From positions 18,413 through 82,412 of IMG/VR virus record IMGVR_UViG_3300034102_002786: a DNA stretch of 64,000 nucleotides. One strand, 5' to 3'. The notes beneath the pieces were generated by a model. The model was given only the letters and a program-made list of their open reading frames with translations, had not been told where the DNA came from and ran no database searches. The translations under genes and the position numbers were made by a program. This DNA comes from a virus (lineage: Duplodnaviria; Heunggongvirae; Uroviricota; Caudoviricetes). Shown here in pieces: positions 21,943 through 54,482 of the stretch; the first letter of the stretch is position 1; every line of letters begins with the position of its first letter.

Positions 21943-21974
21943 TTTGGAAAATTCAGAAAAAAGTAGTATATTTG
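21943..21974 (+). promoter_or_regulatory. Bacteroidetes-type promoter (-33 TTTG, 20-nt spacer, -7 TATATTTG)
   Basis: aaTTTGgaaaattcagaaaaaagtagTATATTTGtaat, ~30 nt upstream of the ATG at 22001. Confidence 0.55.
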
Positions 21975-22000
21975 TAATTAAACATTAAAAACATAAAATT

Positions 22001-22222
22001 ATGGCAAAGTATTTTGAAGTTACAGTAACAGTACAACATGAGGTAGATGGCGGTAAAGGTGGTACAAAAATCAAAAAAGTGAAAGAAAACTATTTGGTTG
22101 ATGCTATGACCGTTACGGAAGCTGAAGCTAGGGTAGTTAAAGAATTCGAAAAAGCAGGTATTCAATTAGACTATGAAGTATCTGCGGCTAAAGAATCTAA
22201 AATCTTACAAGTTATTAAATAA
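22001..22222 (+). CDS. hypothetical protein
   Basis: 73-aa ORF downstream of a promoter motif. Confidence 0.45.
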   Translation: MAKYFEVTVTVQHEVDGGKGGTKIKKVKENYLVDAMTVTEAEARVVKEFEKAGIQLDYEVSAAKESKILQVIK

Positions 22223-22479
22223 TGGCTTTTGAAACTAAAATAGAAGAAGTTAAAGAAGTAGTATTAAGGAGAGTACCACCGGGTGATAGATGGCAGCCGG
22301 TAGACTCTCCTTCTACCATTTTAGAATCTCTAACCGATGGGTTGGAGTATCATTTTCAACAAACCGGACAAACGGATTTCTTCCTATCAGCTCGTAAAGG
22401 GACGGTAGAAGTAATCTATAAAGAGGAAATAAAGGTTGAGAAACCTGTTAAAAGATACTCTTTATACGATGAGGATTAA
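22222..22479 (+). CDS. hypothetical protein
   Basis: 85-aa ORF. Confidence 0.45.
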   Translation: MAFETKIEEVKEVVLRRVPPGDRWQPVDSPSTILESLTDGLEYHFQQTGQTDFFLSARKGTVEVIYKEEIKVEKPVKRYSLYDED

Positions 22480-22531
22480 GTTTGTTTACAAAAAAACTAT
22501 ATATTTATAGATAAACCTTAAAACAAAAATT

Positions 22532-22780
22532 ATGGGAACATTTTTAATTATTTTGGCAGTTCTTGCAATCGGTGGTACATTCGCATACTTCGGTATGAAG
22601 TCTGGAAAGATTGAAGATAAGAACAACAATAACATTCCAGATACTATCGAAGAAAAAATCGAAGAAGTTAAGGAAGTTGCAGTTAAAGTAAAGAAAGTAG
22701 CTGATAAGGCTAAAAAAGTTGCTAAGACTATTGTTGTTGAAAAGAAAAAGCCAGCAGCAAAGAAGAAGACTAGTAAGTAA
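22532..22780 (+). CDS. small membrane-anchored Lys-rich protein
   Basis: N-terminal TM helix followed by a KK-rich tail. Confidence 0.45.
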   Translation: MGTFLIILAVLAIGGTFAYFGMKSGKIEDKNNNNIPDTIEEKIEEVKEVAVKVKKVADKAKKVAKTIVVEKKKPAAKKKTSK

Positions 22781-22783
22781 TCA

Positions 22784-23578
22784 ATGAAAAAGCTTATATC
22801 CGAACTATCTACTATCCAAAAAGAGCTAAAGGAAATCAGAACAAACTTATTCGTAGATATTATCACCGAAGGAGTTGATGATCCTGGTATCCTTAAATGT
22901 ATCTTTTTGGCTGGTGGACCGGGTAGCGGTAAATCCTACACGGCAAAGGAAATCTTTGGTGTTGGTAGGGGAGAAATGGATTCGGTATCGGCAGGTGGAT
23001 TGAAGATAATCAATTCAGACACCGCATTTGAACAAGCTCTCAAAAAAAGAGGAATCAATCCAAAAGATTTAGCAGACATCGAAAAGAATGACCCTAACTT
23101 CTGGGCTTTTATAGCTGGGGAGACTGGTGATTCTATTCGTAATAAGGCTAAAGAGGTTACTAAGAAACAACAAGAATTTTACGAAGCAGGACGTTTAGGA
23201 ATGATAATTGACGGAACGGGAGATGAAGTTCTTAAAATCCGTAACAAAAAAGACAAAGCCGAAAAGCTTGGATATGATTGTTATATGGTATTCGTAAACA
23301 CTTCGTTGGAAGTTGCATTAAAAAGAAATGCTGAAAGAAGCAGAAGCCTACCTGAATCGTTGGTAAAAGACGTTTGGAGAAAGTGCCAAGAGAATATGGG
23401 TAAGTTTCAGGGAATATTCCACAACAATTTTATCATAGTAGATAATACGGAATACCATCCAGTTTCTAAATCAGTACAAAAGCAAGTTGATTCTTTCCTT
23501 AGAAAACCAATTGAAAACCCAATAGGAAAAAAATGGATATTGGGTGCAAGAGCTCTAAAGAAAGTTAGAAGCAAATAA
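22784..23578 (+). CDS. polynucleotide-kinase-like P-loop kinase (T4 Pnk kinase-domain-like)
   Basis: CIFLAGGPGSGKSYTAKEIFG...IINSDTAFEQ parallels T4 Pnk IILTIGCPGSGKSTWAREF...IISDTNLNPE. No fused phosphatase domain. Confidence 0.5.
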   Translation: MKKLISELSTIQKELKEIRTNLFVDIITEGVDDPGILKCIFLAGGPGSGKSYTAKEIFGVGRGEMDSVSAGGLKIINSDTAFEQALKKRGINPKDLADIEKNDPNFWAFIAGETGDSIRNKAKEVTKKQQEFYEAGRLGMIIDGTGDEVLKIRNKKDKAEKLGYDCYMVFVNTSLEVALKRNAERSRSLPESLVKDVWRKCQENMGKFQGIFHNNFIIVDNTEYHPVSKSVQKQVDSFLRKPIENPIGKKWILGARALKKVRSK

Positions 23579-23618
23579 TAGGTTACGTTACAAATTTACG
23601 TTAAAATTGTAACAACAA

Positions 23619-23744
23619 ATGGCTAAATCAGTAGGTTCGGCAAACAAAGTATCTTTTGGTAAAAGAAAGAGTAATCCAAAAGGAAAAAAATCGTATGGTC
23701 CTAAAGCACAAGCACCTAAAAAGTATAGAGGACAGGGTAGATAA
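23619..23744 (+). CDS. small basic protein (41 aa)
   Basis: Hand-translated ORF MAKSVGSANKVSFGKRKSNPKGKKSYGPKAQAPKKYRGQGR; below the ORF-track cutoff. Confidence 0.3.
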   Translation: MAKSVGSANKVSFGKRKSNPKGKKSYGPKAQAPKKYRGQGR

Positions 23745-23753
23745 AATGGGTTT

Positions 23754-23915
23754 ATGAAAAACGGAAAAGCTTACTTGAAAAAGTTTGTGTATAACGAAAT
23801 TGATGAAGAAGAATTATACATAAAAGATAAAAGCAAAGTTAAGAAACAAAAACCAAAGAAGAAGGACTCAAAACCAATTAAAGGTAAAAAGAGTTATTCT
23901 GATGATTGGGATTAA
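23754..23915 (+). CDS. small Lys-rich protein (53 aa)
   Basis: Hand-translated ORF MKNGKAYLKKFVYNEIDEEELYIKDKSKVKKQKPKKKDSKPIKGKKSYSDDWD. Confidence 0.3.
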   Translation: MKNGKAYLKKFVYNEIDEEELYIKDKSKVKKQKPKKKDSKPIKGKKSYSDDWD

Positions 23916-24337
23916 TATATAGAGTTATGAATAAATGGTTATGGAGAGCGCTCGGCTTACTTTTTGTAGGTTGTGCATACATAGGAGCTATTGTACCAGG
24001 CGTACCTATGACAACTTTTGTGGTACTAGCTGCATGGGCATTCGCTAAAAGTTCGCCAGCATTAAATCATTGGTTGCATACGCACCCAACATTCTCACCA
24101 CATCTTATCAGATGGGAAACTAAAAGAATATATCCAACAAAGGTTAAGTATATTATGCTTCTTTGTTGTTTGGTGAGCTATACATTTCTATTATTTACAT
24201 TACATAAAGTGGGAGCACTGATTGGGATAGCATTATTTATGTTATTTTGGTTAGTATGGGCTTGGAGATTTCCCGGTTCAGAAGAAGAATATGAGCGTAG
24301 AGTAAAAGCCGGTAAAAAAATTGGCTGGACAAAATAA
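23906..24337 (+). CDS. DUF454/YbaN-like inner-membrane protein
   Basis: Pattern W..LG..FVGCAYIGAIVPGVPMTTFVVLAAWAFAKSSP is typical of the YbaN family; 3-4 TM helices. Confidence 0.55.
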   Translation: MGLIYRVMNKWLWRALGLLFVGCAYIGAIVPGVPMTTFVVLAAWAFAKSSPALNHWLHTHPTFSPHLIRWETKRIYPTKVKYIMLLCCLVSYTFLLFTLHKVGALIGIALFMLFWLVWAWRFPGSEEEYERRVKAGKKIGWTK

Positions 24338-26651: not shown

Positions 26652-26690
26652 TTTTGCTATATCAGGAAATCTTCGTATATTTGGGTATAA
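26652..26690 (+). promoter_or_regulatory. Bacteroidetes-type promoter (-7 TATATTTG at 26675-26682)
   Basis: gaTTTTGctatatcaggaaatcttcgTATATTTGggtat, upstream of the ATG at 26714. Confidence 0.55.
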
Positions 26691-29014: not shown

Positions 29015-29055
29015 ACATTTGGTAGTTTCAGGTATTTTTCGTATCTTTACGAAGT
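29015..29055 (+). promoter_or_regulatory. Bacteroidetes-type promoter (-33 TTTG at 29018-29021, -7 TATCTTTA at 29042-29049)
   Basis: aaacaTTTGgtagtttcaggtatttttcgTATCTTTAcgaag is nearly identical to the tRNA-array promoters. Confidence 0.55.
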
Positions 29056-29105: not shown

Positions 29106-30311
29106 ATGGCAAAGTCTAATGTAGACAAAGTGAGTAAAGTAATCTTCAAAGTAGTGAAGGTAGGCTCACATTTCAAACTAGCAAATACTGCTGGTAAAAT
29201 TGTAGGTACTAACGGAATTAGTACTGGTACTCGTAAGAAAGCTTTCGAAGCTGGTAAAGCACTTCGTAAAGTAGTTGGTAGTGGTGGTAAGATTCAATAC
29301 CGCTTAACCGATATGGCTGAATTTGATAACTTAGTTGCTCCATTGAAAAGCAACGCCGAAGTTAATGTTGAGAAATTGGATAATCATAAAGAGATTACCG
29401 ATTTTATCCATAACGAATCGGTTAAACTTAAACCTGAAGGATTGGTTATTTCAGACCTTAAATGGAAATACCTTATTCGTTCAGCTGTGAGAGCTAAAAA
29501 TATTATGATGACTGGACCTGCTGGTTGTGGTAAGACATTAGCAGCTAAAGCATTAACTAAAGGTTTAAAGAGACCTGATTTCTATTTCAACTTAGGTGCT
29601 ACGCAAGATGCTAGAGCAACGTTGATTGGTAACACGCACTTTGATTCTAAGAAAGGTACTTTCTTCGCTGAATCCGCTTTCGTAAAAGCAATCACCACTC
29701 CAAACGCTGTTATCCTATTGGATGAGTTGAGTAGAGCACATCCTGATGCTTGGAATATTCTTATGACAGTGTTGGATTTGGGACAACGTTACCTTCGTTT
29801 GGATGAAGCTGTTGATTCACCAATTGTAAATGTGGCTGAAGGTGTTACCTTTATCGCTACGGCTAACATTGGTGGTGAATATACATCAACGCGTGTTCTT
29901 GACCGTGCTATCTTAGACCGTTTCACTACAATTGAAATGGATGTATTGAACGATACGCAGGAGTTTGACTTGTTAAAGTATATGTATCCAGCTGTTAATG
30001 ATGATGATTTGAAAGCAGTAGCTGAAATCGCTCACCATACTAGAGAAATAGCTAAAGGTGGTGATGGTAAATTATCAACTGGTGTATCAACTCGTGCTAG
30101 TGTAGAAACTGCTGGACTTATCTATGATGGATTCAGTTTGTTCGAAGCAGCTGAGATTAGTATGTTCCCCTTCTTCAGTAATGATGGTGGTGTGGATAGT
30201 GAACGTACCTATGTTAAGCAGTTGGTACAAAAGTATGTAAAGGATGAGAAAGCTGATGAGGCTTTATTCACCGAACCAACCGAAGATGATAGTGAAAAAA
30301 TTGTTTGGTAA
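29106..30311 (+). CDS. CobS-like AAA+ ATPase (MoxR/CbbQ/AAA_5 family)
   Basis: Walker A MMTGPAGCGKT and Walker B VILLDELSRAHPD...NILMTVLD. Confidence 0.75.
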   Translation: MAKSNVDKVSKVIFKVVKVGSHFKLANTAGKIVGTNGISTGTRKKAFEAGKALRKVVGSGGKIQYRLTDMAEFDNLVAPLKSNAEVNVEKLDNHKEITDFIHNESVKLKPEGLVISDLKWKYLIRSAVRAKNIMMTGPAGCGKTLAAKALTKGLKRPDFYFNLGATQDARATLIGNTHFDSKKGTFFAESAFVKAITTPNAVILLDELSRAHPDAWNILMTVLDLGQRYLRLDEAVDSPIVNVAEGVTFIATANIGGEYTSTRVLDRAILDRFTTIEMDVLNDTQEFDLLKYMYPAVNDDDLKAVAEIAHHTREIAKGGDGKLSTGVSTRASVETAGLIYDGFSLFEAAEISMFPFFSNDGGVDSERTYVKQLVQKYVKDEKADEALFTEPTEDDSEKIVW

Positions 30312-31549: not shown

Positions 31550-32473
31550 ATGGAATCAATGAGTGAAAGATTTGCACGTTTGGAAAGAGAACGTGACGAA
31601 GAACTTAAACAATATAAATTAGAACAACAATTAAAAATTAAAAAGATGACAAAAATTATTGGTGGTAGTGTTATAGGATTATTCCTAATGGTATTCCTTT
31701 TCAAATCTTGTGAAAGAATTGATGCAGGACATGTGGGTGTTAAAGTAAACCTTTATGGTGATAACAAAGGTGTAAGTGATGTGACTGAAGTAACTGGTAT
31801 GGTATTCTATAATCCAATTACGCATAGCATCTATGAGTTCCCAACGTTTATTCAACACAAAGAATATACAGGTGATAATTCATTCGTAGTAAATAGTAAA
31901 GATGGTAGTGAGTTCCATGTATCACCAATCATTAACTATTCAGTAAAGAGAGAGAAAGTTCCGGCAATCTTCGCTAAATATCGTAGAAGTTTGGACCAAA
32001 TAGAAGAAGGTTTTTTAAAGACAGCTGTATTTGATGCCTTCCGTTTGGCAACTAACGTTTATACTGCTGATGAATTAATTAGTAATAGACAGAAGTTTGA
32101 AATAGAAGTTCGTAGAATATTAGAAGGACAGTTATTAGCAGAAGGATTTGTAGTTAATCAATTCACATCTAACTTAGTATATCCCGAAACATTCAAAACA
32201 GCTATTGAAGCTAAGAATAACGCAGTACAATCGGCATTGATGGCTGAGAATAAAGTTAAGCAAGCAGAAGCTGAAGCTAAGATTAAAGTAGCAACTGCAG
32301 AAGGTAATGCACAGGCACTAATTACTTCCGCTAAAGCTGAAGCTGAAGCAAATAGGATGAAACAGCAAACATTGACACCGTTACTTATTCAATTGGAATA
32401 TGTACAAAAATGGGATGGTAAATTGCCGGTATATGGCGAAGTTCCACAATTGTTCAGAAACATCCAAAAATAA
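31550..32473 (+). CDS. SPFH/band-7 (prohibitin/HflKC-like) domain protein
   Basis: N-terminal TM helix, an SPFH-like core (HVGVKVNLYG...) and a C-terminal Ala/Glu-rich coiled coil. Confidence 0.55.
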   Translation: MESMSERFARLERERDEELKQYKLEQQLKIKKMTKIIGGSVIGLFLMVFLFKSCERIDAGHVGVKVNLYGDNKGVSDVTEVTGMVFYNPITHSIYEFPTFIQHKEYTGDNSFVVNSKDGSEFHVSPIINYSVKREKVPAIFAKYRRSLDQIEEGFLKTAVFDAFRLATNVYTADELISNRQKFEIEVRRILEGQLLAEGFVVNQFTSNLVYPETFKTAIEAKNNAVQSALMAENKVKQAEAEAKIKVATAEGNAQALITSAKAEAEANRMKQQTLTPLLIQLEYVQKWDGKLPVYGEVPQLFRNIQK

Positions 32474-32483: not shown

Positions 32484-32510
32484 AAAGTCTTGGTAATTCC
32501 AAGACTTTTT
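32484..32510 (+). terminator. rho-independent terminator overlapping the next promoter
   Basis: AAGTCTTGG-taatt-CCAAGACTT is a 9-bp perfect stem followed by TTTTT. Confidence 0.6.
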
Positions 32511-32522
32511 CGTATATTTGTA
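32489..32522 (+). promoter_or_regulatory. Bacteroidetes-type promoter (-7 TATATTTG at 32513-32520)
   Basis: The -33 TTGG lies in the terminator stem, 20 nt upstream of TATATTTG. Confidence 0.5.
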
Positions 32523-32533: not shown

Positions 32534-32830
32534 TTGTTCAACCTTAAAAGGCATAAAATGAAAACCTTTAAAGATTTAGATTTTAAACCACACCCAAATA
32601 CAGGGCATCTTGGTGGGGTTCAGGCTCGTATCACATTTGATAATGGATATGGTGCATCAATTGTTCAAACCGAATTTAGTTATGGTGGTAAGGATGGTTT
32701 GTATGAGTTAGCAGTGTTCGGTAAGAATGGACATATTACATACGATACTCCAATTACAAATGATGTGTTGGGTTATCTGAAAGCAGAAGAAGTATCTAAA
32801 ATTATGGAACAAATTCAATTGTTGAAATAA
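32534..32830 (+). CDS. hypothetical protein
   Basis: 98-aa ORF downstream of the promoter. Confidence 0.5.
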   Translation: MFNLKRHKMKTFKDLDFKPHPNTGHLGGVQARITFDNGYGASIVQTEFSYGGKDGLYELAVFGKNGHITYDTPITNDVLGYLKAEEVSKIMEQIQLLK

Positions 32831-35261: not shown

Positions 35262-35660
35262 ATGGCATACGGAGAAAAGGTCATTGACCATTATCAAAAC
35301 CCCCGTAATGTTGGTACGTTGGATAAGAGTAAACCAACGGTGGGGACTGGGTTAGTTGGGGCGCCCGAATGTGGTGATGTAATGAGGCTCCAAATCCAAA
35401 TCGAAGATGGTATCATAACGGATGCCAAATTCAAAACTTTCGGATGTGGCTCGGCAATCGCAGCCAGTTCCTTAGCAACTGAATGGTTAAAGGGAAAGAG
35501 TGTAGATGAGGCGGCTAAGTTGGATAATATGGATTTAGTTGAGGAATTATCTCTACCACCTGTAAAGATACATTGTTCGGTATTGGCGCAGGATGCAGTT
35601 CAAGCCGCTATCAATGATTACCGAACAAAAAACGGATTAGAACCAATTAAATTTGATTAA
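35262..35660 (+). CDS. iscU: Fe-S cluster assembly scaffold IscU/NifU-like
   Basis: Full-length match to IscU: NPRNVG, GAPECGDVMRLQI, FKTFGCGSAIASSS and LPPVKIHCSVLA. Confidence 0.9.
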   Translation: MAYGEKVIDHYQNPRNVGTLDKSKPTVGTGLVGAPECGDVMRLQIQIEDGIITDAKFKTFGCGSAIAASSLATEWLKGKSVDEAAKLDNMDLVEELSLPPVKIHCSVLAQDAVQAAINDYRTKNGLEPIKFD

Positions 35661-35970
35661 TATGAAAAAGTTATTGAACTGGTTAAGGAGTATATTCGGC
35701 CAAAAAGTAGGTGCTGAGTTACACATTTATTCTATTAAGTGGGAGAAACCTTTGGATGGAACGCAGATTAGGGCGGTTATTAATACGATGATAAATTATT
35801 TCCCACCTAATTGTAAACCGAGTAGTATAACCACAACATCATCATCTACATCTTTTAATTTTTATTCAACCTGCCTAAGTGGACAGCAATTAAAAGATAT
35901 TGGTGAAAAGGCTGTAAGTGGGGCTAAGGTTCAATCGGTTTGGTTAGATGGAACTCAAATTTTACCATAA
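35653..35970 (+). CDS. hypothetical protein
   Basis: 105-aa ORF. Confidence 0.45.
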   Translation: MINMKKLLNWLRSIFGQKVGAELHIYSIKWEKPLDGTQIRAVINTMINYFPPNCKPSSITTTSSSTSFNFYSTCLSGQQLKDIGEKAVSGAKVQSVWLDGTQILP

Positions 35971-36167
35971 TGGAAGATAAGATAGAAATAAACGATGGAC
36001 ACTATTTGGAGTTATTAGATAGATTACACGTTATAATGTGTAACTTAAATGACCATTGTTTGGAACACCCATTGGCTCAATCTGATGAAGAAATAAAATT
36101 CAAAATAGAATACGCATTAGGACAAGTCTGGGATGCGTATCAAATGGTTGGAAGTAAAACAAAATAA
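35970..36167 (+). CDS. hypothetical protein
   Basis: Start moved to the internal ATG after the upstream stop. Confidence 0.4.
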   Translation: MEDKIEINDGHYLELLDRLHVIMCNLNDHCLEHPLAQSDEEIKFKIEYALGQVWDAYQMVGSKTK

Positions 36168-36168
36168 T

Positions 36169-36348
36169 ATGAAAAAATTATTTAGAAGTACAACAGATAG
36201 TAGAATAGGTGGAGTGTGTGGTGGTATCGCCGAATATACAAATAGTGACCCAACAATTTGGAGATTACTTTTTTTGGCATTAATATGTGCTCCATTCCCT
36301 ATGATTTTTATGTACTGTTTGGCGTGGATTATTATACCTAAAAAATAA
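36169..36348 (+). CDS. PspC-domain membrane protein
   Basis: RSTTDSRIGGVCGGIAEYTNSDPTIWRLLF followed by a TM helix is the PspC domain signature. Start at the internal ATG. Confidence 0.7.
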   Translation: MKKLFRSTTDSRIGGVCGGIAEYTNSDPTIWRLLFLALICAPFPMIFMYCLAWIIIPKK

Positions 36349-36352
36349 AATT

Positions 36353-36622: not shown

Positions 36623-36624
36623 TT

Positions 36625-37351: not shown

Positions 37352-37359
37352 TGGGTTAT

Positions 37360-40173: not shown

Positions 40174-40545
40174 ATGAACACAATTAAACAATATGGATTA
40201 GCAATACTTTGCGTTATATTTGGAACTATTGCTTTCCTAAACTATGCCCGATTCAAAGGTAGAGAATTGGAGATAGAACAATTAAGTAGAGATAATGAAA
40301 ATCTAAGACAACATATAATTACCTTAGATGAAAAAATAACCTTATTGGATAGTTATCCATACGAACATTCAGAAATAAAAAAAGAAAACAATGACAGAGT
40401 TACTGATTTTCCTAAACATAATGATTTTGGAAATTGTACTAAGTATAGACAATGCGGCTGTACTTGCGGCGATGGTAAAGGAGTTACCAAAAGACCAGCA
40501 AAAAAAGGCGCTGACTTACGGGATAGCGGGAGCATACCTTTTTAG
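40174..40545 (+). CDS. hypothetical small membrane protein; its 3' part overlaps terC in another frame
   Basis: N-terminal TM helix plus coiled coil up to ~40390; the remainder is probably frame-overlap read-through. Confidence 0.25.
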   Translation: MNTIKQYGLAILCVIFGTIAFLNYARFKGRELEIEQLSRDNENLRQHIITLDEKITLLDSYPYEHSEIKKENNDRVTDFPKHNDFGNCTKYRQCGCTCGDGKGVTKRPAKKGADLRDSGSIPF

Positions 40546-41041
40546 AGGATTAGCTTTACTATTCGCATCCGTTCTTATCAAATTGGTATGGTTGAAAGTA
40601 GCAGGTGGATTGTATCTTATGTACTTAGCATATAAAGCCCTATCTTCAAAAGTTGAGCAGGGTGGTGAGAGTAAGATGACAATTAAGATACCATTTCTAT
40701 CAGCACTTTGGTCTACTATCGTAGCAATTGAGATGATGGATTTAGTATTCAGTATTGATAATGTATTTGCCGCTGTAGCATTCACACCTAACTTATGGTT
40801 GATATGTGGTGGGGTATTCATTGGTATCCTTGCTATGAGATTTGCAACAACAAAGTTTGTGAAAGTGTTAGAGAAAAATCCTATATTGGAGAGAGTAGCA
40901 TATTGGGTAATTGGAGCATTGGGATTGAAGTTAGTATCATCATATTGGTTGCATGATTTGAATACTGAAAGCATAGATGCAGTATTCTCAATCTTAACTT
41001 TATTAGCGTTTATTATACCTTTAATTTTGAAGAAAAAATAA
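40391..41041 (+). CDS. TerC-family integral membrane protein
   Basis: LEIVLSIDNAAVLA and a second SIDNVFAAVA repeat are the TerC signature; multiple TM helices. Confidence 0.7.
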   Translation: MTELLIFLNIMILEIVLSIDNAAVLAAMVKELPKDQQKKALTYGIAGAYLFRGLALLFASVLIKLVWLKVAGGLYLMYLAYKALSSKVEQGGESKMTIKIPFLSALWSTIVAIEMMDLVFSIDNVFAAVAFTPNLWLICGGVFIGILAMRFATTKFVKVLEKNPILERVAYWVIGALGLKLVSSYWLHDLNTESIDAVFSILTLLAFIIPLILKKK

Positions 41042-42969: not shown

Positions 42970-43320
42970 ATGAATTTTATAGTTGAATTTTGTAAGGGTG
43001 CGTTATATGGATTGGTGGCCCAAATTATTACTTTTGTACAATTACAAGGTAATATTAAATGGGGATTATTATCCAAATATCCAATATTGACGCTTTTAAC
43101 ATCAATACCAATGGCTTACCTATTTATGAAATCGGTAGAGCATTTTGTTGTTGCTTATAATGGTGAAATATGGCCTAGTAGATTAATAGGATTTGCAATA
43201 GGTATAATTGTATTTGCTATAATGAGTATCTTAATGTTTAAAGAACCAATAACTATGAAAACGTTTGTGTGTTTGATGTTGGCATGTTGCATATTGGGAG
43301 TTCAAATTTTTTGGAAATGA
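42970..43320 (+). CDS. membrane protein (3-4 TM helices)
   Basis: Start moved to the ATG at 42970 just downstream of the promoter; hydrophobic throughout. Confidence 0.45.
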   Translation: MNFIVEFCKGALYGLVAQIITFVQLQGNIKWGLLSKYPILTLLTSIPMAYLFMKSVEHFVVAYNGEIWPSRLIGFAIGIIVFAIMSILMFKEPITMKTFVCLMLACCILGVQIFWK

Positions 43321-44569: not shown

Positions 44570-44845
44570 ATGATGGAAACAATCGGATTTATTGGTAGCA
44601 TACTTTTAGCAGTATGTGGTATTCCAGAAGTGGTTCGCACTATTAAAGATAACAAATGTCATTTAGGATGGAACTTTTTGTTACTTTGGTTTGGTGGCGA
44701 ACTTTTCATGCTTACATATATTATACCAATGAAAGACCTTCCATTATTATTAAACTATGTATTCAATACGGCATTAGTAGGAATAATGCTATTTTATAAA
44801 ATCAAAAACACAAAATATGTTACCATTAAAAGAAGCAATCGCTGA
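44570..44845 (+). CDS. membrane protein
   Basis: 91-aa ORF with 2-3 TM helices. Confidence 0.45.
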   Translation: MMETIGFIGSILLAVCGIPEVVRTIKDNKCHLGWNFLLLWFGGELFMLTYIIPMKDLPLLLNYVFNTALVGIMLFYKIKNTKYVTIKRSNR

Positions 44846-45362
44846 GAAGCATTCGTTAGCAGAAAAAATGACATTCAATCAAAGAATGTTAAACGGAGAA
44901 TTGAGTAAAGAAGAATATATCGCATATCTTTGCCAACAATTAGGAATATTCGATGCGATAGAAAGAGGTAGAACACTACCACACCCATCCCTTAACAGAG
45001 TTGATAATATCTTAAAAGATATTCAAGAACTGATGGAAATTGGCGATGATGCTGGGTTGGAAATTGACCTTTTAGATTCAACTGAAAAATATTTTTTATA
45101 TATTAAATCATTATCGGATGAAGAAATACTTCCGCACATTTATCTTAACTACTTAGCCCTAATGTTTGGTGGGCAGATGATGAAATCAAAAGTTCCTGGT
45201 AATGGTAAGATGTATGAGTTCGATGGTGATATGAGGGAAGTTGCTGGAAGTATTAGAGCAATTCAAAAAGATGAATGGGCAGACGAAGCAAACAAAGCAT
45301 TAGATTACAATATAGCTATTTTTGATGAACTACAACGAATATCTGAATCAGCTGGCGAATAA
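44817..45362 (+). CDS. heme oxygenase
   Basis: LKEAIAEKHSLAEKMTFNQRMLNGELSKEEYIAYLCQQLGIFDAIE follows the heme-oxygenase proximal-helix pattern (K.H...E....L.G.....Y...L.Q.Y.I..A.E). Confidence 0.7.
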   Translation: MLPLKEAIAEKHSLAEKMTFNQRMLNGELSKEEYIAYLCQQLGIFDAIERGRTLPHPSLNRVDNILKDIQELMEIGDDAGLEIDLLDSTEKYFLYIKSLSDEEILPHIYLNYLALMFGGQMMKSKVPGNGKMYEFDGDMREVAGSIRAIQKDEWADEANKALDYNIAIFDELQRISESAGE

Positions 45363-46343: not shown

Positions 46344-46799
46344 ATGTTCGTACCAAATCATTTGCATCTATTGGTAAAGGGATACTTAAAATCCCCACCA
46401 CAAACAGAAAAAGTGTTAAACATATGGTTTACACAATTGGTTGACAACGTAGGAATGAAAGTTGTTGCAGGTCCTACATCGGTTTATGTTAATGAACCGG
46501 GCAACGAAGGGATAACGGGAACGGTAACATTAGCAACATCGCATGCATCTATTCACGTTTGGGATAACGAAAATCCGGCTATGTTTCAATTTGATATTTA
46601 TAGTTGTTCGGATTTTAAACCAAAAGATGTACTAAACCATATAGATGATTGGTTTGGATTAACTGAAGCACATTGGCAGTTTATAGATAGAAACGGTAAA
46701 GATTTTAAAGTGATTGATTCGGGTCATTTTAAAAAGAGTGTTGTAAGAAAAATTACCGATGTATTTAAAACGAAAAAAGTAGTTGATGAACTTGGATGA
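46344..46799 (+). CDS. speD: S-adenosylmethionine decarboxylase proenzyme (SpeH/class 1 AdoMetDC)
   Basis: GPTSVYVNEPGNEGITGTVTLATSHASIHVWDNE carries the pyruvoyl-forming Ser region typical of small AdoMetDC. Confidence 0.7.
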   Translation: MFVPNHLHLLVKGYLKSPPQTEKVLNIWFTQLVDNVGMKVVAGPTSVYVNEPGNEGITGTVTLATSHASIHVWDNENPAMFQFDIYSCSDFKPKDVLNHIDDWFGLTEAHWQFIDRNGKDFKVIDSGHFKKSVVRKITDVFKTKKVVDELG

Positions 46800-47469: not shown

Positions 47470-47718
47470 GTGACAGTGAAAAAAACAATCAAAAAATTAG
47501 AAAACAAAGAGAGCAGATTGATGCTCTATCGCGATACATCATTGATGCTGGCAATGTTTTTTCTACCTTTGGGGTACGATGCACTGTTCAAGCTATTGAT
47601 GGATATAACAGGCTCATATTGGGGAGCAGACGTGGTCTTTTACTCAATTTCAGGCTGCTTTTGGTTGGCATATATATTGTTTACCAAACGTTTAAATAAA
47701 TTTGGAAAATCCGAATAA
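47470..47718 (+). CDS. small membrane protein
   Basis: 82-aa ORF; an alternative-frame ORF at 47460..47699 also exists. Confidence 0.35.
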   Translation: MTVKKTIKKLENKESRLMLYRDTSLMLAMFFLPLGYDALFKLLMDITGSYWGADVVFYSISGCFWLAYILFTKRLNKFGKSE

Positions 47719-47735
47719 ATTTAGTATCTTTGTAT
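47701..47735 (+). promoter_or_regulatory. Bacteroidetes-type promoter (-33 TTTG at 47701-47704, -7 TATCTTTG at 47725-47732)
   Basis: TTTGgaaaatccgaataaatttagTATCTTTGtatag. Confidence 0.55.
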
Positions 47736-47737: not shown

Positions 47738-47971
47738 ATGGAAATCAACGAAAACATATTAAAACTTAAACTTAAAGAATCCGAATTAAAGGAAGAATTA
47801 GCAAGTGCTGAAGCTCACATACCTGTAAATAATATGGGTAAATGGGCTCGTCAAACTAAAATTGACCGTATTTCGGAAAGACTAAAGAAGGTGCAAGAAA
47901 AAATCCATTTTCACGATTCTATATATTTATCTAATGAAATATACAATGAATGGAAAAAGGATGTAAAGTAG
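47738..47971 (+). CDS. hypothetical coiled-coil protein
   Basis: 77-aa ORF. Confidence 0.4.
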   Translation: MEINENILKLKLKESELKEELASAEAHIPVNNMGKWARQTKIDRISERLKKVQEKIHFHDSIYLSNEIYNEWKKDVK

Positions 47972-48636
47972 TACGTTTGGATGAAGCTTCTTTAGGTAGA
48001 GTTCTCCAACACATTCAGGGCAAAAAGAGTGTGAAAAATTGGGGTATGCTTACCGCATATAGATATTCTAATACTCCAAACCAAAATAAAAAACTTAATA
48101 AAGAATTAGAAGCTGAATTAAGGCAGATGGGGCATGGATTCTTTAAAGTAGAAGGTCATTGGGTTGAGTGCCAGGATGGTAACCTATCATACGAAGATTG
48201 TCCGAAGAACTTACTAAAAGATGCTATCGAAGAATCACTTTTCGTTCCAAATATTTCAGCAAAAGATATTCACAACTTAGGTAAAAAATACGGACAGGAT
48301 GCGGTTATCTTTGGTGGTGAACAAACTAAAGGAAACGCAACTCTTATATTCAAAGATGGTAAGGTAGAAAATATTGGTAAGTTTTCTCCTGATAAAATAC
48401 AACAAGCTTATTCAAAACTAAAAGGCGGAAAAACTTTTGTATTTAAGCCAGAAGAACCTAAAGTTTCTGATGATGAAACAAAGTTAATGCATTTATTACC
48501 AAAAGATATTTTAGACAAAACTATTAAAAATCCAGCAACAGGAAATATGATTAAAGTTAAATCAGCTTTAGCATACGATGAGAAACACCCTGTATTTAAG
48601 GCAGCTCAAACATTTGTTGCACAATCTAAAAAATAA
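47950..48636 (+). CDS. hypothetical protein
   Basis: 228-aa ORF. Confidence 0.5.
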   Translation: MEKGCKVVRLDEASLGRVLQHIQGKKSVKNWGMLTAYRYSNTPNQNKKLNKELEAELRQMGHGFFKVEGHWVECQDGNLSYEDCPKNLLKDAIEESLFVPNISAKDIHNLGKKYGQDAVIFGGEQTKGNATLIFKDGKVENIGKFSPDKIQQAYSKLKGGKTFVFKPEEPKVSDDETKLMHLLPKDILDKTIKNPATGNMIKVKSALAYDEKHPVFKAAQTFVAQSKK

Positions 48637-48637: not shown

Positions 48638-48672
48638 TTTGGCGGATTCGTATCTTTTTAGTATATTTGTAT
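48638..48672 (+). promoter_or_regulatory. Bacteroidetes-type promoter (-7 TATATTTG at 48662-48669)
   Basis: aaTTTGgcggattcgtatctttttagTATATTTGtat. Confidence 0.45.
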
Positions 48673-48748
48673 ATACTTATTAATTCTATGTGTATAACTC
48701 ATTGATTCTGAGGCATTTATGAAAGTTATCCACATTTAGAAAAAAAGA

Positions 48749-48782
48749 TTTGGTAGTTTGAAAAATTATTTGTATCTTTACA
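48749..48782 (+). promoter_or_regulatory. tandem promoter copy P1 (-33 TTTG at 48749-48752, -7 TATCTTTA at 48773-48780), immediately upstream of the first tRNA
   Basis: aaaaaagaTTTGgtagtttgaaaaattatttgTATCTTTAcaaagtt. Confidence 0.6.
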
Positions 48783-48806
48783 AAGTTCTTTTAAATAATA
48801 TAATAT

Positions 48807-48878
48807 TGTGGGGTAGAGCAGAGGTAGCTCGCAAGGCTCATAACCTTGAGGCCGTTGGTTCGAATCCTTCCCCCGCAA
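48807..48878 (+). tRNA. tRNA-Met-like (anticodon CAT), copy 1; the T-stem has two T-T mismatches
   Basis: Acceptor TGTGGGG/CCCCGCA, D-stem GAGC/GCTC, anticodon stem CAAGG/CCTTG with loop CTCATAA, T-loop TTCGAAT. The acceptor is identical to the tRNA at 52002. Confidence 0.55.
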
Positions 48879-48887
48879 CAAAAAAGA

Positions 48888-48921
48888 TTTGGTAGTTTGA
48901 AAAAATTATCGTATCTTTACA
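48888..48921 (+). promoter_or_regulatory. tandem promoter copy P2
   Basis: aaaaagaTTTGgtagtttgaaaaaattatcgTATCTTTAcaaagtt. Confidence 0.55.
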
Positions 48922-49040
48922 AAGTTAAGGTTGAAGCCATCAACTAATAAAACCGATTGAGTGACTCGTTAAACATTAGTTTCGTTAGAGTGAAAAGAAA
49001 CTACAAAGCCGGATACTTTAACTAACTAATTAAAAAAAGA

Positions 49041-49074
49041 TTTGGTAGTTTGAAAAAATTATCGTATCTTTACT
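49041..49074 (+). promoter_or_regulatory. tandem promoter copy P3
   Basis: aaaaagaTTTGgtagtttgaaaaaattatcgTATCTTTActaagatt. Confidence 0.55.
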
Positions 49075-49140
49075 AAGATTCAAAAATAAAGTAGTTGATT
49101 GGTTCGCCAGAAAACAAAATTGAGAATCTTTAAAAAAAGT

Positions 49141-49174
49141 TTTGGAAAATTGAAAAAGATTTCGTATCTTTACT
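49141..49174 (+). promoter_or_regulatory. tandem promoter copy P4
   Basis: TTTGgaaaattgaaaaagatttcgTATCTTTActctgttc. Confidence 0.5.
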
Positions 49175-50368
49175 CTGTTCTTAAAACAAAAGTTCTTTAA
49201 CATATTGAAGATACTACACATAGTAACCTTGTGTTACATAGTGTACGATGGCCGCCTATGGTCATTAAATAAACTACGAAAGTAGGATAAAGTGAATCAT
49301 TTGGTTAAATGATTTGCGGTTTGTAATCCGTTTAGGGTTATGAGCTTGAGTAGGCAAGTGAGATATTACTTGGGCTTTGTATGTGAGGGTAACACTGTAG
49401 CAGAAGAGTTTGGGTAACTGGGGGTATGTAGAACCTTCGGTTGAGTTCGGAAGAACAATAAGAATAACTCATAGAATTATTGTAAGACATAGAAAGCTAA
49501 TCCCTTTTTACTATTGCGTGATTCAATACCAAAGTGGTCTTGATAATCAAGCTATCCGAAAGGACGTAAGATAAGACTGTGTACGCGTGGTGGCGTTACT
49601 ATCCTTTAATGTGGGACACCAATCCCTATTAATGAAGATGACTTGAAGTATGGCGTTGAGATAACGCATTGGGTAGTTTAGTATTCTCTCGTTCAAAAGA
49701 TGGGGGAGCTGGTGATGGACCGCTACCTGAATCAATCTACAAACCAAAACTTTATATTTTCAATTTAGGTTTGAAAAACTATAATTAAACATAAAGCATA
49801 AGTGTCCATCAGTTGTGACCGAAAGGTGCATACATAGTTGGGAGTTGTTCCCAGCCATAAACGCCCGCAAGGTGGTTATGATTTTTACGAAAAGCTTATA
49901 GACCCGCAAGGTTGAATCAGTTCGGCAGGATTGAATAAGGGGAGTAGTAAGAGAGTAAGTTACAACTTTAAGAGTGGTTATACTTTACTAACCTGCATTG
50001 ACTGGTACATCTCAAAAGGGTGTGGAAACGAAAGGAATCAAAATAATCTTTCTAAAGCTAGTTATCCCAACGTGTATTCTCAACGTTTTTACTTTCTCAA
50101 TGGTTGTATATTGGTTCGATTCCAATAGAGAGAGCAAATTCATCCTGTAAGATGAATTATCGTGGTCTTTCTTTTACATAATGTTCACCTATTGAGAATA
50201 AAGAGTTATGTAGACCTAAAAGAACAAAACTAATGTAGACAGTATAGGCTGGTTTTTGTAAGTTTGACTGTTAATCCCTTATCAAATAGGGCTAAACGAA
50301 AATGGTTGACACGATAGATACCTGTGGTTAGGCAAGCGCTCGGAAAGTTCCCACCTTACAAAAAAACT

Positions 50369-50440
50369 TTCCATTTATGCGGTGTAAGTGTTACGGTAGC
50401 ACATTTCACATTCCAGTGAAAAGGAGAGGTTCAATTCCTT
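50369..50440 (+). ncRNA. tRNA-like element (pseudo-tRNA) with a 6-nt anticodon loop
   Basis: Acceptor TGCGGTG/CACCGCT (6 of 7 bp), T-arm AGAGG-TTCAATT-CCTTT, anticodon stem TTCAC/GTGAA with loop ATTCCA. Confidence 0.2.
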
Positions 50441-50505
50441 TCACCGCTCTACTAACAACTGAAAAGTTGTTCGTTTCATATCTTAATTTTTATTACAACT
50501 TAGAT

Positions 50506-50530
50506 GGGGGTGCTTCGGCATCCCCTATTT
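50506..50530 (+). terminator. rho-independent terminator with a UUCG tetraloop
   Basis: GGGGGTGC-TTCG-GCATCCCC is an 8-bp stem followed by TATTT. Confidence 0.55.
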
Positions 50531-50776
50531 AAGCCTGATGAAACTAACAACAATTCGGAAAAAATTATTTATATATACTTATTAATATAACAAAGTGATG
50601 AAAACTTTAACACTACATACAAATTGTTCGCAACCTACATTGAGAAATGAGTGGGCAGGCATTCGTATGTTTAGTACGATTAGTAATCCGGCAAACTTAG
50701 GCAAGGTGGATTATATTTGTACACAGTTAGAGGAAGCATCAGGTTGGTAATAGATTATACTTAAAACAACATAGAA

Positions 50777-50816
50777 AGACCTCTAACTGAATCAAATCGG
50801 TTAGAGGTTTTTTCGT
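50777..50816 (+). terminator. rho-independent terminator
   Basis: AGACCTCTAAC-(12-nt loop)-GTTAGAGGTTT followed by TTTTT; ends 6 nt before tRNA-Asn. Confidence 0.6.
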
Positions 50817-50821
50817 TTTAA

Positions 50822-52286: not shown

Positions 52287-52306
52287 TAACTTAAAACATA
52301 AAAGAG

Positions 52307-52735
52307 ATGAACGTAAAACAGGCTTTAAAAGCAAAGAACAAACTTACCACTCAAATCAAAGCGTTATATGAAATCGCTAAGAATCATAACTCAATTGAGG
52401 AAGGTAACCTGCGTAGATATTCCGTAAATGGAGTATTGAATGAAGCAGAAGAATTGACCAAAGAGTTGGTTGATTTAAAAACTAAAATCCATCAGGCTAA
52501 CCAACCTGTATATGGTAAGATTTTCCTAATGGCAGAGCTAAAAGGAAAGGTAAAGCAACTTAAAGGAATGAGTTGTGAAGAAGGTAAAGTAACCGAAAGA
52601 TTTGGTTCAATCCAATCGGTGAAAGAAGTAGAAATTAATATCGCTCAAAAAGACCAAATGATAAAAGATTTGGAAAATCAAATTGAGGGATTGCAGGATG
52701 AGTTGGATGTGTATAACGCAACTACAACCATCTAA
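52307..52735 (+). CDS. hypothetical coiled-coil protein embedded in the tRNA array
   Basis: 142-aa ORF downstream of the internal promoter. Confidence 0.5.
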   Translation: MNVKQALKAKNKLTTQIKALYEIAKNHNSIEEGNLRRYSVNGVLNEAEELTKELVDLKTKIHQANQPVYGKIFLMAELKGKVKQLKGMSCEEGKVTERFGSIQSVKEVEINIAQKDQMIKDLENQIEGLQDELDVYNATTTI

Positions 52736-53113: not shown

Positions 53114-53185
53114 GCTTCCAAAGCATTGCAGGCGATGCGCTTGACTTGTAATCAAGATAATTCGGTTCGATTCCGGATGGAAGCT
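53114..53185 (+). tRNA. tRNA-Thr (TGT)
   Basis: Acceptor GCTTCCA/TGGAAGC, D GCAT/ATGC, anticodon arm CTTGA-CTTGTAA-TCAAG, T-arm TTCGG-TTCGATT-CCGGA. Confidence 0.85.
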
Positions 53186-53260
53186 CAAACTAATTCATTG
53201 AGGTGTTTGTCAACCAGTGCATGACATGGATGGTGCGGATAAAGGTGAATTAGTGATTAA

Positions 53261-53334
53261 GGATTGTTGGTGAAGTTGGTTATCATGCCACCCTGTCACG
53301 GTGGAGTTCACGGGTTCGAGTCCCGTACAATCCG
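53261..53334 (+). tRNA. tRNA-Asp (GTC)
   Basis: Acceptor GGATTGT/ACAATCC, D GTGA/TCAT, anticodon arm CCACC-CTGTCAC-GGTGG, T-arm ACGGG-TTCGAGT-CCCGT. Confidence 0.85.
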
Positions 53335-53582
53335 CAAAAGGTATAATTAGATTGTATATGCAATTAGCTCGGCAATCTTTAACACCTGCAGATGTGAGGT
53401 GATTATACTTTTAAGTTGTTTCATACACTTAACACACCTAGTAACAAGGTAAGGCACATAGAGTTACATAGAGGCATGGAGTAATTACCCAACGCCACAT
53501 TCGGACTACAAATGTAGATTAGGTTCAGACGTTGTAGAGAAAGAGATGTTAAGAGTAAACTTGCAAGTTGAAACAACTGTTT

Positions 53583-53659
53583 GGTTCGGTAGCTCAGTTG
53601 GATAGAGCAACAGCCTTCTAAGCTGTGGGTCAAAGGTTCGAATCCTTTCCGAATCACCA
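53583..53659 (+). tRNA. tRNA-Arg (TCT) with an encoded CCA
   Basis: Acceptor GGTTCGG/CCGAATC, D GCTC/GAGC, anticodon arm ACAGC-CTTCTAA-GCTGT, T-arm AAAGG-TTCGAAT-CCTTT, then A-CCA. Confidence 0.85.
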
Positions 53660-53674
53660 AATAAAAAGTAAGAC

Positions 53675-54121
53675 ATGAAAAATGTAACTTTAGTAACATG
53701 CTTCTTTTTGTTATTCATTCCGCATAATATAAATAACTCTGAAAGGAGTGAGGAAGAAGTTGTGGATGAAATAATAGAAAAGAAAAAGTTACCTTATGAT
53801 TTAGTGACCGTAACAACGTACACTGTATCTAAAGGTGAAACCGATTCAACTCCATTAATTACCGCAAGTGGTTACAAATTGGATAGCCTTAATCCAAAGA
53901 AACAAAAGGTAATAGCAATAAGCAGAGACCTGAAACGAAAGTATAAGTTTGGACAAAAAGTAAGAGTGAAGGGTGCTGGTAAATTAGATGGTGTATATAC
54001 CGTCAGAGATTTAATGGCGAAGAGATGGACAAAAAAGATTGATATATTAATTAACCCAGATGATAAAGGAACAAAAATCAGAAAGGTTAAGTTATATAAT
54101 GTAGCAAACATAGGGAATTAG
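53675..54121 (+). CDS. secreted 3D-domain protein (MltA/YocH-like cell-wall-binding or lytic fold)
   Basis: N-terminal signal-like segment, then VTVTTYTVSKGETDSTPLITASGYKL...VRVKGAGKLDGVYTVRD, which follows the 3D-domain pattern (TAYT..E.D..P.TASG). Its 3' end overlaps tRNA-Pro by 10 nt. Confidence 0.6.
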   Translation: MKNVTLVTCFFLLFIPHNINNSERSEEEVVDEIIEKKKLPYDLVTVTTYTVSKGETDSTPLITASGYKLDSLNPKKQKVIAISRDLKRKYKFGQKVRVKGAGKLDGVYTVRDLMAKRWTKKIDILINPDDKGTKIRKVKLYNVANIGN

Positions 54122-54185
54122 CGTAGCCCGGTATCGCGCTTGGTTTGGGACCAAGAGGTCGTCAGTTCGAATCTGGCATTCCCTA
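54112..54185 (+). tRNA. tRNA-Pro (TGG)
   Basis: Acceptor AGGGAAT/ATTCCCT, anticodon arm CTTGG-TTTGGGA-CCAAG, T-arm GTCAG-TTCGAAT-CTGGC. Confidence 0.8.
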
Positions 54186-54218
54186 CGAAAAGATTTGGAT
54201 AAGTGAAATATAAAATAA

Positions 54219-54446
54219 ATGGCAAAGTATATTAAAACCGCATTCATACGAGATTTAGAAATCAAATTGCAAAATGAAGAAATTTCATATGGTAAAGCGA
54301 TTGAACTTATTCAAGAAGAAGTTATTGAAAATTATAAAAAAGATAATACCTTATTGAAAAAAATAAAAAGATTATTAGGTGAGGTTTGGCTAGGATTTAA
54401 GATAGCTGAAGGAAACCGAAATAAATCTCAATGGGGTAAATTTTAA
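54219..54446 (+). CDS. hypothetical protein embedded in the tRNA array
   Basis: 75-aa ORF. Confidence 0.4.
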   Translation: MAKYIKTAFIRDLEIKLQNEEISYGKAIELIQEEVIENYKKDNTLLKKIKRLLGEVWLGFKIAEGNRNKSQWGKF

Positions 54447-54447
54447 A

Positions 54448-54482
54448 TTAGGATAATTAAAATATTATTCGTATCTTTGTAT
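54448..54482 (+). promoter_or_regulatory. promoter inside the array (-7 TATCTTTG at 54472-54479; degenerate -33)
   Basis: ggataattaaaatattattcgTATCTTTGtatag. Confidence 0.45.

Follow-up and report, generated by a model that had tools for sequence, protein, structure and literature searches.

The chief gap in what is known of uncultured jumbo phages is their host, and the locus described here raises the question of which bacterial phylum transcribes and translates its genes. The locus is a stretch of 64,000 nucleotides (hereafter the window) from IMG/VR virus record IMGVR_UViG_3300034102_002786 (positions 18,413 to 82,412), and the sequence read comprises this window and 20 kb of flanks of a phage of about 278 kb. 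The element in question is a repeated promoter-like site, with TTTG at about -33 and a box of the TAnnTTTG type at about -7. The observations cover the motif itself with its bias to one strand, its placement upstream of genes and its persistence in relatives, together with the depletion of Shine-Dalgarno (SD) sequences and a likeness to phages cultured on Bacteroidota; which polymerase reads the sites, where transcription starts and which host is involved are inferred from these. The motif, the strand bias, the SD depletion and the likeness to Bacteroidota phages point to a host that most probably belongs to the Bacteroidota, and the 15 strong sites of the window are probably strong early or constitutive promoters read by a host polymerase of the Bacteroidota type.

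The promoter motif

Promoters of Bacteroidetes combine TTTG at -33 with TAnnTTTG at -7 (TANNTTTG), the latter having been refined to TAHHTTTG (Baez et al. 2019, PMC6847099). Work on Bacteroides fragilis and on Flavobacterium johnsoniae established this sigma-ABfr class (Baez et al. 2019, PMC6847099, with the studies cited there), and in F. johnsoniae the G at the last position of the -7 element is nearly invariant (Baez et al. 2019, PMC6847099).

The pattern TTTG-N17-23-TANNTTTG has 22 matches in the window, against 5.1 +/- 2.1 in dinucleotide shuffles, and none of 100 shuffles reaches 22; a chance origin of the sites was rejected on these counts. Scanning with a position matrix trained on the obvious sites, in which a strong site scores at least 25 bits, gave 15 strong sites on the plus strand and none on the minus strand (Table 1). 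Exactly 14 of them lie in the interval 21943-54482, which runs from the TTTG of its first site to its last box, as the first-pass annotation had estimated when it counted at least 14 intergenic sites there, and the three box variants that it named were all recovered (TATATTTG in eight sites, TATCTTTG in two and TATCTTTA in five). The common register is aaaAaanATTTGG-N19-TTCGTAT(A/C)TTT(G/A), with 19-20 nucleotides from TTTG to TA. The -33 TTTG is present in 13 of the 15 sites, the remaining two carrying cTTG and aTTAG; the -7 box matches TAnnTTTG or TAHHTTTG exactly in ten, the other five being the TATCTTTA variant in which the last G is replaced by A, and G never occupies the nn positions. 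With the true ATG starts at 26714 and 42970 in place of mechanical TTG starts, all sites are intergenic except 571-601, which falls within the final 100 nucleotides of the preceding open reading frame (ORF). The distance to the start codon, transfer RNA (tRNA) gene or ORF-free RNA sequence that follows is 6-60 nucleotides, and the flanks of the same phage hold further sites of this motif. Canonical TTGACA-N16-18-TATAAT is not enriched in the window (70 matches against 96.8 expected, and 85 against 91.2 expected).

Compared with Bacteroidota sigma-A promoters, the sites agree in TAHH (15 of 15), in the -33 TTTG, in the AT-rich spacer of 19-20 nucleotides and in the A-rich leaders without SD sequences that follow them. 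They differ in being far more uniform, in that one third end in A, and in the added conservation of TTTGG, TTCG and an upstream A-tract, which together with the bases flanking the box goes beyond the published host consensus.

Translation signals

In Bacteroidetes translation proceeds without SD sequences, and A at -3, -6, -12 and -13 has a positive effect (Baez et al. 2019, PMC6847099). The absence of SD sequences that had been noted for the window genes held: no AGGAG stands upstream of the 85 ATG genes of the window, GGAG, GAGG or AGGA precedes a fraction of 0.04 of window genes against 0.11 in coding-sequence controls, and the mean duplex energy with the anti-SD sequence is -0.48 kcal/mol upstream against -2.26 kcal/mol in coding sequence. 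The A fraction before the starts reaches 0.65-0.68 at -13 to -11 (0.68 at -13 and -12) and 0.5-0.6 at -6 to -3 (0.52 at -6, 0.51 at -3), a profile that Flavobacterium phage immuto matches almost exactly, and T occupies -1 in 56% of the genes. Of the aaaattATGG context proposed earlier, the A-rich leader is thus real, but the ATGG was overstated, since only 14 of 85 genes have a literal ttATGG and the frequency of G at +4 is that of the background (35%, against 32% after any ATG in the window). AUG is depleted near the starts (29 observed, 44.6 expected) to the same degree in phages of every host type, which is uninformative because the ORF caller takes the first ATG.

In the mechanism proposed, a host RNA polymerase with a Bacteroidota-type sigma-A would bind the -33 and -7 boxes of a promoter composed of the upstream A-tract, the -33 TTTGG, a spacer of 19-20 nucleotides ending in TTCG and the -7 TAT(A/C)TTT(G/A). 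The A-tract may act like an UP element, and transcription would start about 5 nucleotides past the box, driving operons of 1-15 genes, the tRNA arrays and a GOLLD RNA. Ribosomes would then load without SD pairing on unstructured A-rich leaders, as they do in F. johnsoniae. If transcription does start at that distance, the messenger RNA from site P8 would be nearly leaderless.

Comparison with phages of known host

A panel of phages was scored for genes with TTG-N19-21-TAHHTTTR within 150 nucleotides upstream, in sense and antisense orientation, and for the fraction of genes with an SD core motif, upstream and in a coding control. This pattern was used because a strict one, with TTTG at both ends, missed real promoters of immuto (GTTGC, TATATTTA). 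The window gave 13 sense and 0 antisense promoters, Flavobacterium phage immuto 22 and 5 (SD 0.03 against 0.21 in the control) and Bacteroides phage BS162P1 10 and 0 (SD 0.09 against 0.17). The corresponding values were 1 and 1 for Pelagibacter phage HTVC008M (SD 0.49 against 0.05), 0 and 0 for Synechococcus phage S-SM2 (0.40 against 0.15), 0 and 1 for Methylophilales phage Melnitz (0.48 against 0.10) and 0 and 0 for Rhodothermus phage RM378 (0.24 against 0.11). The promoter type is therefore present in both Bacteroidia phages and absent in all four phages of other hosts; it is also found in Microcystis phage Mel-JY01, which is considered below.

Intergenic regions of immuto (vB_FspM_immuto, MW353175.1) read aaaaaGTTGc-N20-ttcgTATATTTAGGTATcaataaTTAAAAC..ATG, and share with the window the A-tract, the TTG, the 20-nucleotide spacer, ttcgTAT(A/C)TTTA (TATMTTTA, the A-ending variant), the TTAAAAC leader and the A-rich start without an SD sequence. 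They differ in the -33 element (GTTGC, not TTTGG) and in the box TATATTTAGG, and immuto has a 160-kb genome, a family A DNA polymerase and no similarity to the window at the DNA level. For BS162P1, the sole links to the window are weak matches of the cobS (27%) and cobT-like (21%) proteins.

Early promoters of T4-type phages depend on the host sigma-70, follow a super-consensus and sometimes stand in mobile cassettes of a promoter and a stem-loop. The window resembles them in having many near-identical strong promoters before small early genes, auxiliary genes and tRNAs, with A-tracts and with hairpins adjacent or inside, and the window phage carries a T4-like clamp loader in its flank; the sequences differ, T4-type early promoters being TTGACA/TATAAT and the window consensus being of the Bacteroidota type. 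Near-identical hairpins with 12-bp stems occur at 37333-37359 and 59434-59460 (ATAACTCGTTGAAAATCAATGGGTTAT, ATAACTCATTGATTTTCAATGGGTTAT), each followed by a promoter-like site, and these pairs resemble the promoter/stem-loop cassettes of T4-type phages. At P5 the spacer itself folds into a 13-bp hairpin, so that terminator and promoter overlap there.

A cyanophage (Kyanoviridae) identity of the phage was examined and rejected: the SD fraction is one tenth of that of S-SM2, TTGACW-N16-18-TAnnnT is found upstream of 0 window genes against 4 in S-SM2, the clamp loader is only 36-37% identical, and the genes that are similar are sugar and auxiliary ones (25-48%).

Relatives linked by cobS

In IMG/VR, a cobS that is 59-94% identical to that of the window is found at 80 loci (67 distinct), and these loci hold 84 sites on the plus strand and none on the minus strand. 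A promoter-like site precedes cobS at a comparable place in nearly all loci with at least 66% cobS identity and in many more distant ones, its type varying by lineage. Close relatives keep TTTGG...TATCTTTA before cobS with diverged spacers, and site P2 is likewise kept in two relatives (L018 and L019) with unchanged boxes and a diverged spacer. At 70-72% cobS identity (L032-L047) the box TATATTAG stands in place of TATMTTTR, also without SD sequences, and this sister group may represent a third expression dialect. Many loci at 59-62% identity carry AAAAAAAGaCTTGACT-N17-TAnnnT before cobS.

SD use changes with the promoter. By core motif and by duplex energy, respectively, its fraction is 0.02 and 0.03 in loci with the window-type box (23 loci, 126 genes), 0.06 and 0.04 in TTAG-type loci (8 loci), and 0.42 and 0.46 in TTGACW-N17-TAnnnT loci (20 loci, 125 genes). 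That promoter type and SD use, two independent signals, switch together within one phage family argues for adaptation to the transcription and translation machinery of the host, and against a fixed lineage-specific promoter; this co-switching offers a simple and testable rule for host prediction.

Narrowly distributed genes and similar phages

Gene content gives a second kind of host hint. When about 55 small hypothetical proteins were compared with those of cultured phages, three proved narrowly distributed, and all three lead to phages of Flavobacteriia: for the DUF4494 protein (22001-22222) and the membrane protein (42970-43320, 48.8%) immuto is the sole cultured-phage match, and the protein at 53675-54121 is matched in Tenacibaculum and Cellulophaga phages only. 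Immuto also matches four proteins of the sugar cluster and an HNH-like protein of the window at 40-54% identity. A scan of genome collections for the DUF4494 protein returned no cellular homologues, only four misbinned fragments of the phage group in metagenome-assembled genomes of Chitinophagaceae, 'uncultured Bacteroidetes', Ignavibacteria and Arenimonas, bins that are weak evidence for a host. The record titles of the fragments lead to a lake time series.

For freshwater jumbo phages of 293-331 kb with a GC (guanine plus cytosine) content of 31-34%, tRNAs and lipopolysaccharide genes, Bacteroidetes hosts have been predicted, and one spacer from Flavobacterium gave a match (Chen et al. 2022, PMC9723584). 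The window phage resembles the phages of that study that encode the ribosomal protein bS21 (PMC9723584) in its lake origin, a size of about 280-330 kb, a GC content of 31-34%, many tRNAs, polysaccharide genes, a dUTPase, a DegT-type aminotransferase and bS21 itself. It differs from clades a-e of the same study (PMC9723584) in the place of this gene: there it lies on the reverse strand inside the terminase/portal/protease/capsid block, and in the window it is co-oriented with its neighbours, far from any capsid/terminase block.

Microcystis phage Mel-JY01 and the alternative explanations

Judged by its clamp loader and cobS, the window phage comes closest to two records, at 40-56% identity: LR756508.1, an uncultured phage of 484 kb, and Microcystis phage Mel-JY01. 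A literature search found no paper on either. Mel-JY01 (PP395634.1) is the closest cultured relative (cobS 55.6%, clamp loader 39.5%). It has the clamp loader, a PD-(D/E)XK nuclease and a glycosyltransferase in the same order as the window phage, a bS21 and the same promoter box; it differs in its -33 element (cTTGCAT), in some boxes with G at the variable positions and in its AGGA leaders. Its capsid protein is closest to that of immuto (55% identity), which ties the wider clade to a Flavobacterium phage. When the Mel-JY01 capsid was used to look for that of the window phage in IMG/VR, more than 600 matches were obtained and none lay on window-linked contigs.

Several observations weigh against a Bacteroidota host. 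Mel-JY01, annotated with a cyanobacterial host (Microcystis), carries the same TTCGTAnnTTTGTA box at 13 or more co-oriented sites and uses SD-like AGGA/AAGG (0.25-0.38 upstream, 0.04-0.05 in coding sequence), so that the box alone is not exclusive. Either the box is partly inherited within the lineage or the host record needs checking; the roughly 177 kb of Mel-JY01 read carry no annotated photosynthesis gene, and the record may deserve re-examination. The geometry of the sites, TTGnnn-N17-TATMTT, is that of a generic sigma-70 promoter, and the diagnostic parts are only the invariant TTT(G/A) and the TTTGG in place of TTGACA. The last base is A in five of the 15 boxes, a departure from the nearly invariant G of F. 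johnsoniae, and one of the four misbinned fragments lies in a gammaproteobacterial bin. The bS21 of the window is not of the Bacteroidia type: in Bacteroidia Tyr54 stacks on the anti-SD sequence and the C-terminal part is weakly basic, and the window protein has Arg at that position (KAI-R, against KAI-Y) and a basic C-terminal part (about 13 K/R against 6 D/E by hand count). Lys takes the place of Tyr54 in Mel-JY01. Since the window protein lacks the signature, bS21 was discarded as a host marker, and a basic-tailed, Arg-bearing bS21 is in any case odd for a phage whose messenger RNAs are without SD sequences. Finally, the 84 kb read of the 278-kb genome leaves room for a phage-encoded sigma factor.

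As an alternative, the promoter type might be inherited within the phage lineage and be read with the aid of a protein that the phage itself encodes, either a sigma factor or an adaptor like MotA/AsiA. The motif would then reveal little about the host, which could be a cyanobacterium, as in the Mel-JY01 annotation, or a proteobacterium, as the literature assumes for phages with hemO-pcyX. In favour of this are the A-tract, TTG, TTCG and TAnnTTTGTA that Mel-JY01 shares despite its SD use and Microcystis annotation, the conservation of TTCG and box-flanking bases past the published consensus, the placing of contigs with hemO/pcyX among pelagiphages or alphaproteobacterial hosts in the literature, and the minor share of the genome, 84 of about 278 kb, that the sequence read covers. 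We nevertheless regard this explanation as unlikely. In the cobS-linked family the promoter at the same position becomes TTGACW-N17-TAnnnT exactly where SD sequences appear, so that promoter type tracks an external factor and not the lineage; immuto and BS162P1 share the architecture, the latter being only weakly linked to the window; no sigma-like protein is found among the Pfam hits of the window and flanks; and the near-total lack of SD sequences fits neither cyanophages nor pelagiphages.

Another SD-poor lineage with similar promoters might instead be the host, either an uncharacterised phylum of fresh water or a different member of the Fibrobacteres-Chlorobi-Bacteroidetes (FCB) group (Ignavibacteria, Chlorobi). 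Very few phyla have a known promoter consensus, one misbinned fragment lies in an Ignavibacteria bin, and the SD-free relatives with TATATTAG suggest several related dialects. This appears quite improbable, because the three narrowly distributed small genes all lead to Flavobacteriia phages, because the phage most similar to the window in its promoter, leader and start context was cultured on Flavobacterium, and because RM378, whose host is outside the Bacteroidia, lacks the signals. That the sites are a dispersed repeat (a recombination or homing cassette) or an accident of AT-rich sequence, as the near identity of the four copies at 48749-49172 and the pairing of some sites with repeated hairpins (37333, 59434) might suggest, is extremely improbable given the shuffles, the absolute strand bias, the position of every site just upstream of a gene or RNA gene and a conservation that stops at the two boxes, the spacers having diverged in relatives, and a mobile promoter cassette would be a promoter all the same.

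A Bacteroidota host thus remains the preferred explanation. The consensus that was proposed as specific to Bacteroidetes does match the published one and the Flavobacterium and Bacteroides phages, but it is not strictly specific, given the same box in Mel-JY01 and the sigma-70 geometry. Likewise, of the Flavobacteriia-like host proposed earlier, the phylum is supported by the literature match, the phage panel, the co-switching relatives and the shared small genes, and the class is suggested only; in the GTDB sense the host would most probably fall in the class Bacteroidia, with Flavobacteriales as a plausible order.

Heme oxygenase, bilin reductase and other auxiliary genes

The cyanophage-like auxiliary genes of the window have to be read with this host in mind. 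The heme oxygenase gene overlaps that of a short bilin reductase, whose best solved structure is PcyX 5OWG (7e-19), followed by PcyA, and not PebS; the alignment includes the His of the MAHL/VLHF stretch and the Asp of GFD, candidates for the catalytic pair, and the length is 209 against 243 residues. The product would be either phycoerythrobilin or phycocyanobilin. Relatives of the reductase were collected by protein search and contig look-ups, a single-protein IMG/VR search having returned the same phage group only. Homologues with 58-65% identity occur both in SD-using contigs (SD fraction 0.63 in L186 and 0.42 in L185) and in SD-free contigs (0.03 in L187 and 0 in the window group). On L186, an SD-using, cyanophage-like contig with a GC content of 0.44, the cassette of heme oxygenase and short reductase (8936-10642) directly follows CpeT, which indicates that the cassette moved between phages of different host types. 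In the pelagiphage HTVC008M, cobS is preceded by a large 'peptidase' gene, at the position of the cobT-like gene of the window, and bS21 is also present. The spread of homologues across SD-using and SD-free contigs, and the sharing with HTVC008M, imply that these genes circulate among aquatic T4-like phages of different hosts. Heme oxygenase and the PcyX-like reductase, speD and cobS/T accordingly belong to a pool shared by aquatic T4-like phages of several host phyla and are no marker of a cyanobacterial or phototrophic host. As a separate observation, speD (S-adenosylmethionine decarboxylase) lies near a gene whose product falls in the S-adenosylmethionine lyase family (E = 3e-10), two enzymes on one metabolite.

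RNA genes and other features of the window

All genes of the window are on the plus strand, with a GC content of 30-36%. No DNA-level similarity to the window was found among the 50,697 phage records searched; many metagenome contigs, the longest of 278,432 bp, carry identical proteins, which marks the window phage as a widespread uncultured jumbo phage. It is a T4-related phage of fresh water, and its upstream flank encodes a T4-type clamp loader, a dUTPase and a PD-(D/E)XK nuclease.

The 27 tRNA genes lie at 48.8-56.2 kb, and the array is headed by a GOLLD RNA, with P13 about 500 nucleotides upstream of the match. GOLLD is a large ornate RNA whose function is not known and which often adjoins phage tRNAs. 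Five tandem promoters crowd within 550 nucleotides (48638-49200). Four of these, at 48749-49172, are near-identical copies, and they are followed by tRNA-Met, by two short stretches without ORFs and by the GOLLD RNA. With a single tRNA among the five, two or three further short transcripts may be made here; an Rfam E-value scan of 48638-49200 and 50100-50820 gave no further RNA family. At 50378-50449 there is a tRNA-like element with an abnormal anticodon loop.

Parts of the sugar cluster are 40-54% identical to immuto and 25-48% to S-SM2, and the cluster probably remodels the cell surface. The 796-residue collagen-like protein is probably a fibre, and long antisense ORFs over its gene are artefacts of the Gly-Ser-Ser repeat. 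Genes of a cellular type, unusual for a phage, encode IscU (NifU_N, E = 9e-50), an IscA-like Fe-S protein, PspC, TerC, Band 7/SPFH and DUF454. Downstream of the tRNA array, 56704-59020 holds in a row a sialyltransferase-like gene (Glyco_transf_29), a CMP-sugar synthetase/RraA-like fusion and a SET-domain protein, the Pfam hits being precomputed ones taken from the identical contig L012.

Table 1. Promoter sites, RNA genes and selected genes of the window (window coordinates; the box column gives the first position of the -7 box).
Feature	Position	Box	Strand	Remarks
P1, TTTG-N19-TATATTTG	571-601	594	+	30.9 bits; upstream of gene 661-1848 in sugar-modification cluster; identical in locus L013
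P2, TTTGG-N19-TATATTTG	21943-21974	21967	+	40.3 bits; 27 nucleotides upstream of DUF4494 gene
P3, TTTG-N19-TATATTTG	26653-26683	26676	+	upstream of cobT-like gene (ATG 26714, end 28930)
P4, TTTGG-N19-TATCTTTA	29018-29049	29042	+	51.2 bits; 57 nucleotides upstream of cobS (29106-30311)
P5, cTTGG-N19-TATATTTG	32489-32520	32513	+	upstream of 32558-32830
P6	37363-37394	37387	+	directly after hairpin 37333-37359; 17 nucleotides upstream of HAD-like gene 37411-37935
P7	42934-42965	42958	+	upstream of membrane-protein gene (ATG 42970, end 43320)
P8, TATCTTTG	47701-47732	47725	+	6 nucleotides before ATG 47738
P9	48638-48669	48662	+	head of ORF-free RNA-gene region
P10, TATCTTTA	48749-48780	48773	+	upstream of tRNA-Met 48807-48879
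P11, TATCTTTA	48888-48919	48912	+	followed by about 100 nucleotides without ORF
P12, TATCTTTA	49041-49072	49065	+	followed by about 60 nucleotides without ORF
P13, TATCTTTA	49141-49172	49165	+	closest promoter upstream of GOLLD RNA
P14	52253-52284	52277	+	23 nucleotides upstream of gene 52307-52735
P15, -33 aTTAGG, TATCTTTG	54448-54479	54472	+	upstream of tRNA-Leu 54505 and the next six tRNAs
Weaker site, TTTG...TACCTTTA	59532-59563	59556	+	12.4 bits; after hairpin 59434-59460, upstream of 59586-60062
Weaker site, TTTGG...TACATTTA	63918-63949	63942	+	13.5 bits; upstream of gene starting beyond window end
GOLLD RNA	match 49669-50086, probably about 49200-50100		+	full-length Rfam GOLLD match, 295.9 bits, E = 1e-83
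Gene set without SD sequences	51-63797		+	about 100 co-oriented genes; A-rich leaders, often TTAAAAC
Sugar cluster, about 23 kb	window 1-16176 and L013 3438-10011			more than 25 sugar-nucleotide, glycosyltransferase, methyltransferase and aminotransferase genes
bS21 homologue, phage-encoded	17880-18152		+	between HAD-like gene and collagen-like fibre gene
796-residue protein	18219-20609			long collagen-like Gly-Ser-Ser repeat, then beta-rich C-terminal part
Cell-type gene set (IscU, IscA-like, PspC, TerC, Band 7/SPFH, DUF454)	35262-36954, 40391-41041, 31550-32473, 23906-24337
Heme oxygenase	44817-45362		+	overlaps reductase gene
Short PcyX/PcyA-like bilin reductase, 209 residues	45325-45954		+	Pfam PF05996 (Fe_bilin_red), E = 7e-19
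speD and S-adenosylmethionine lyase-family protein	46344-46799 and 47950-48636

Implications for phage-host assignment

A wider, tentative interpretation, which we consider possible but hold with less than even confidence, is that one aquatic T4-related jumbo lineage moved between host phyla, rewriting its promoters and ribosome-binding sites together and keeping its auxiliary cassettes (heme oxygenase and PcyX-like reductase, cobS/T, speD and bS21), the window being the Bacteroidota-adapted form. If this is true, the bilin genes would be expressed in a non-phototrophic Bacteroidota cell, for heme/iron turnover or a bilin-binding sensor and not for light harvesting; Mel-JY01 would stand out as a mixed or transitional case, or one with a misassigned host; and the dialect formed by promoter and SD use would become a general predictor of host phylum for uncultured phages. 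Phages with hemO-pcyX have been assumed in the literature to have cyanobacterial, pelagiphage-type or alphaproteobacterial hosts, and a Bacteroidota host for such a phage would widen this picture. Expression signals alone, once calibrated on cultured phages, can place a widespread lake phage with the Bacteroidota.

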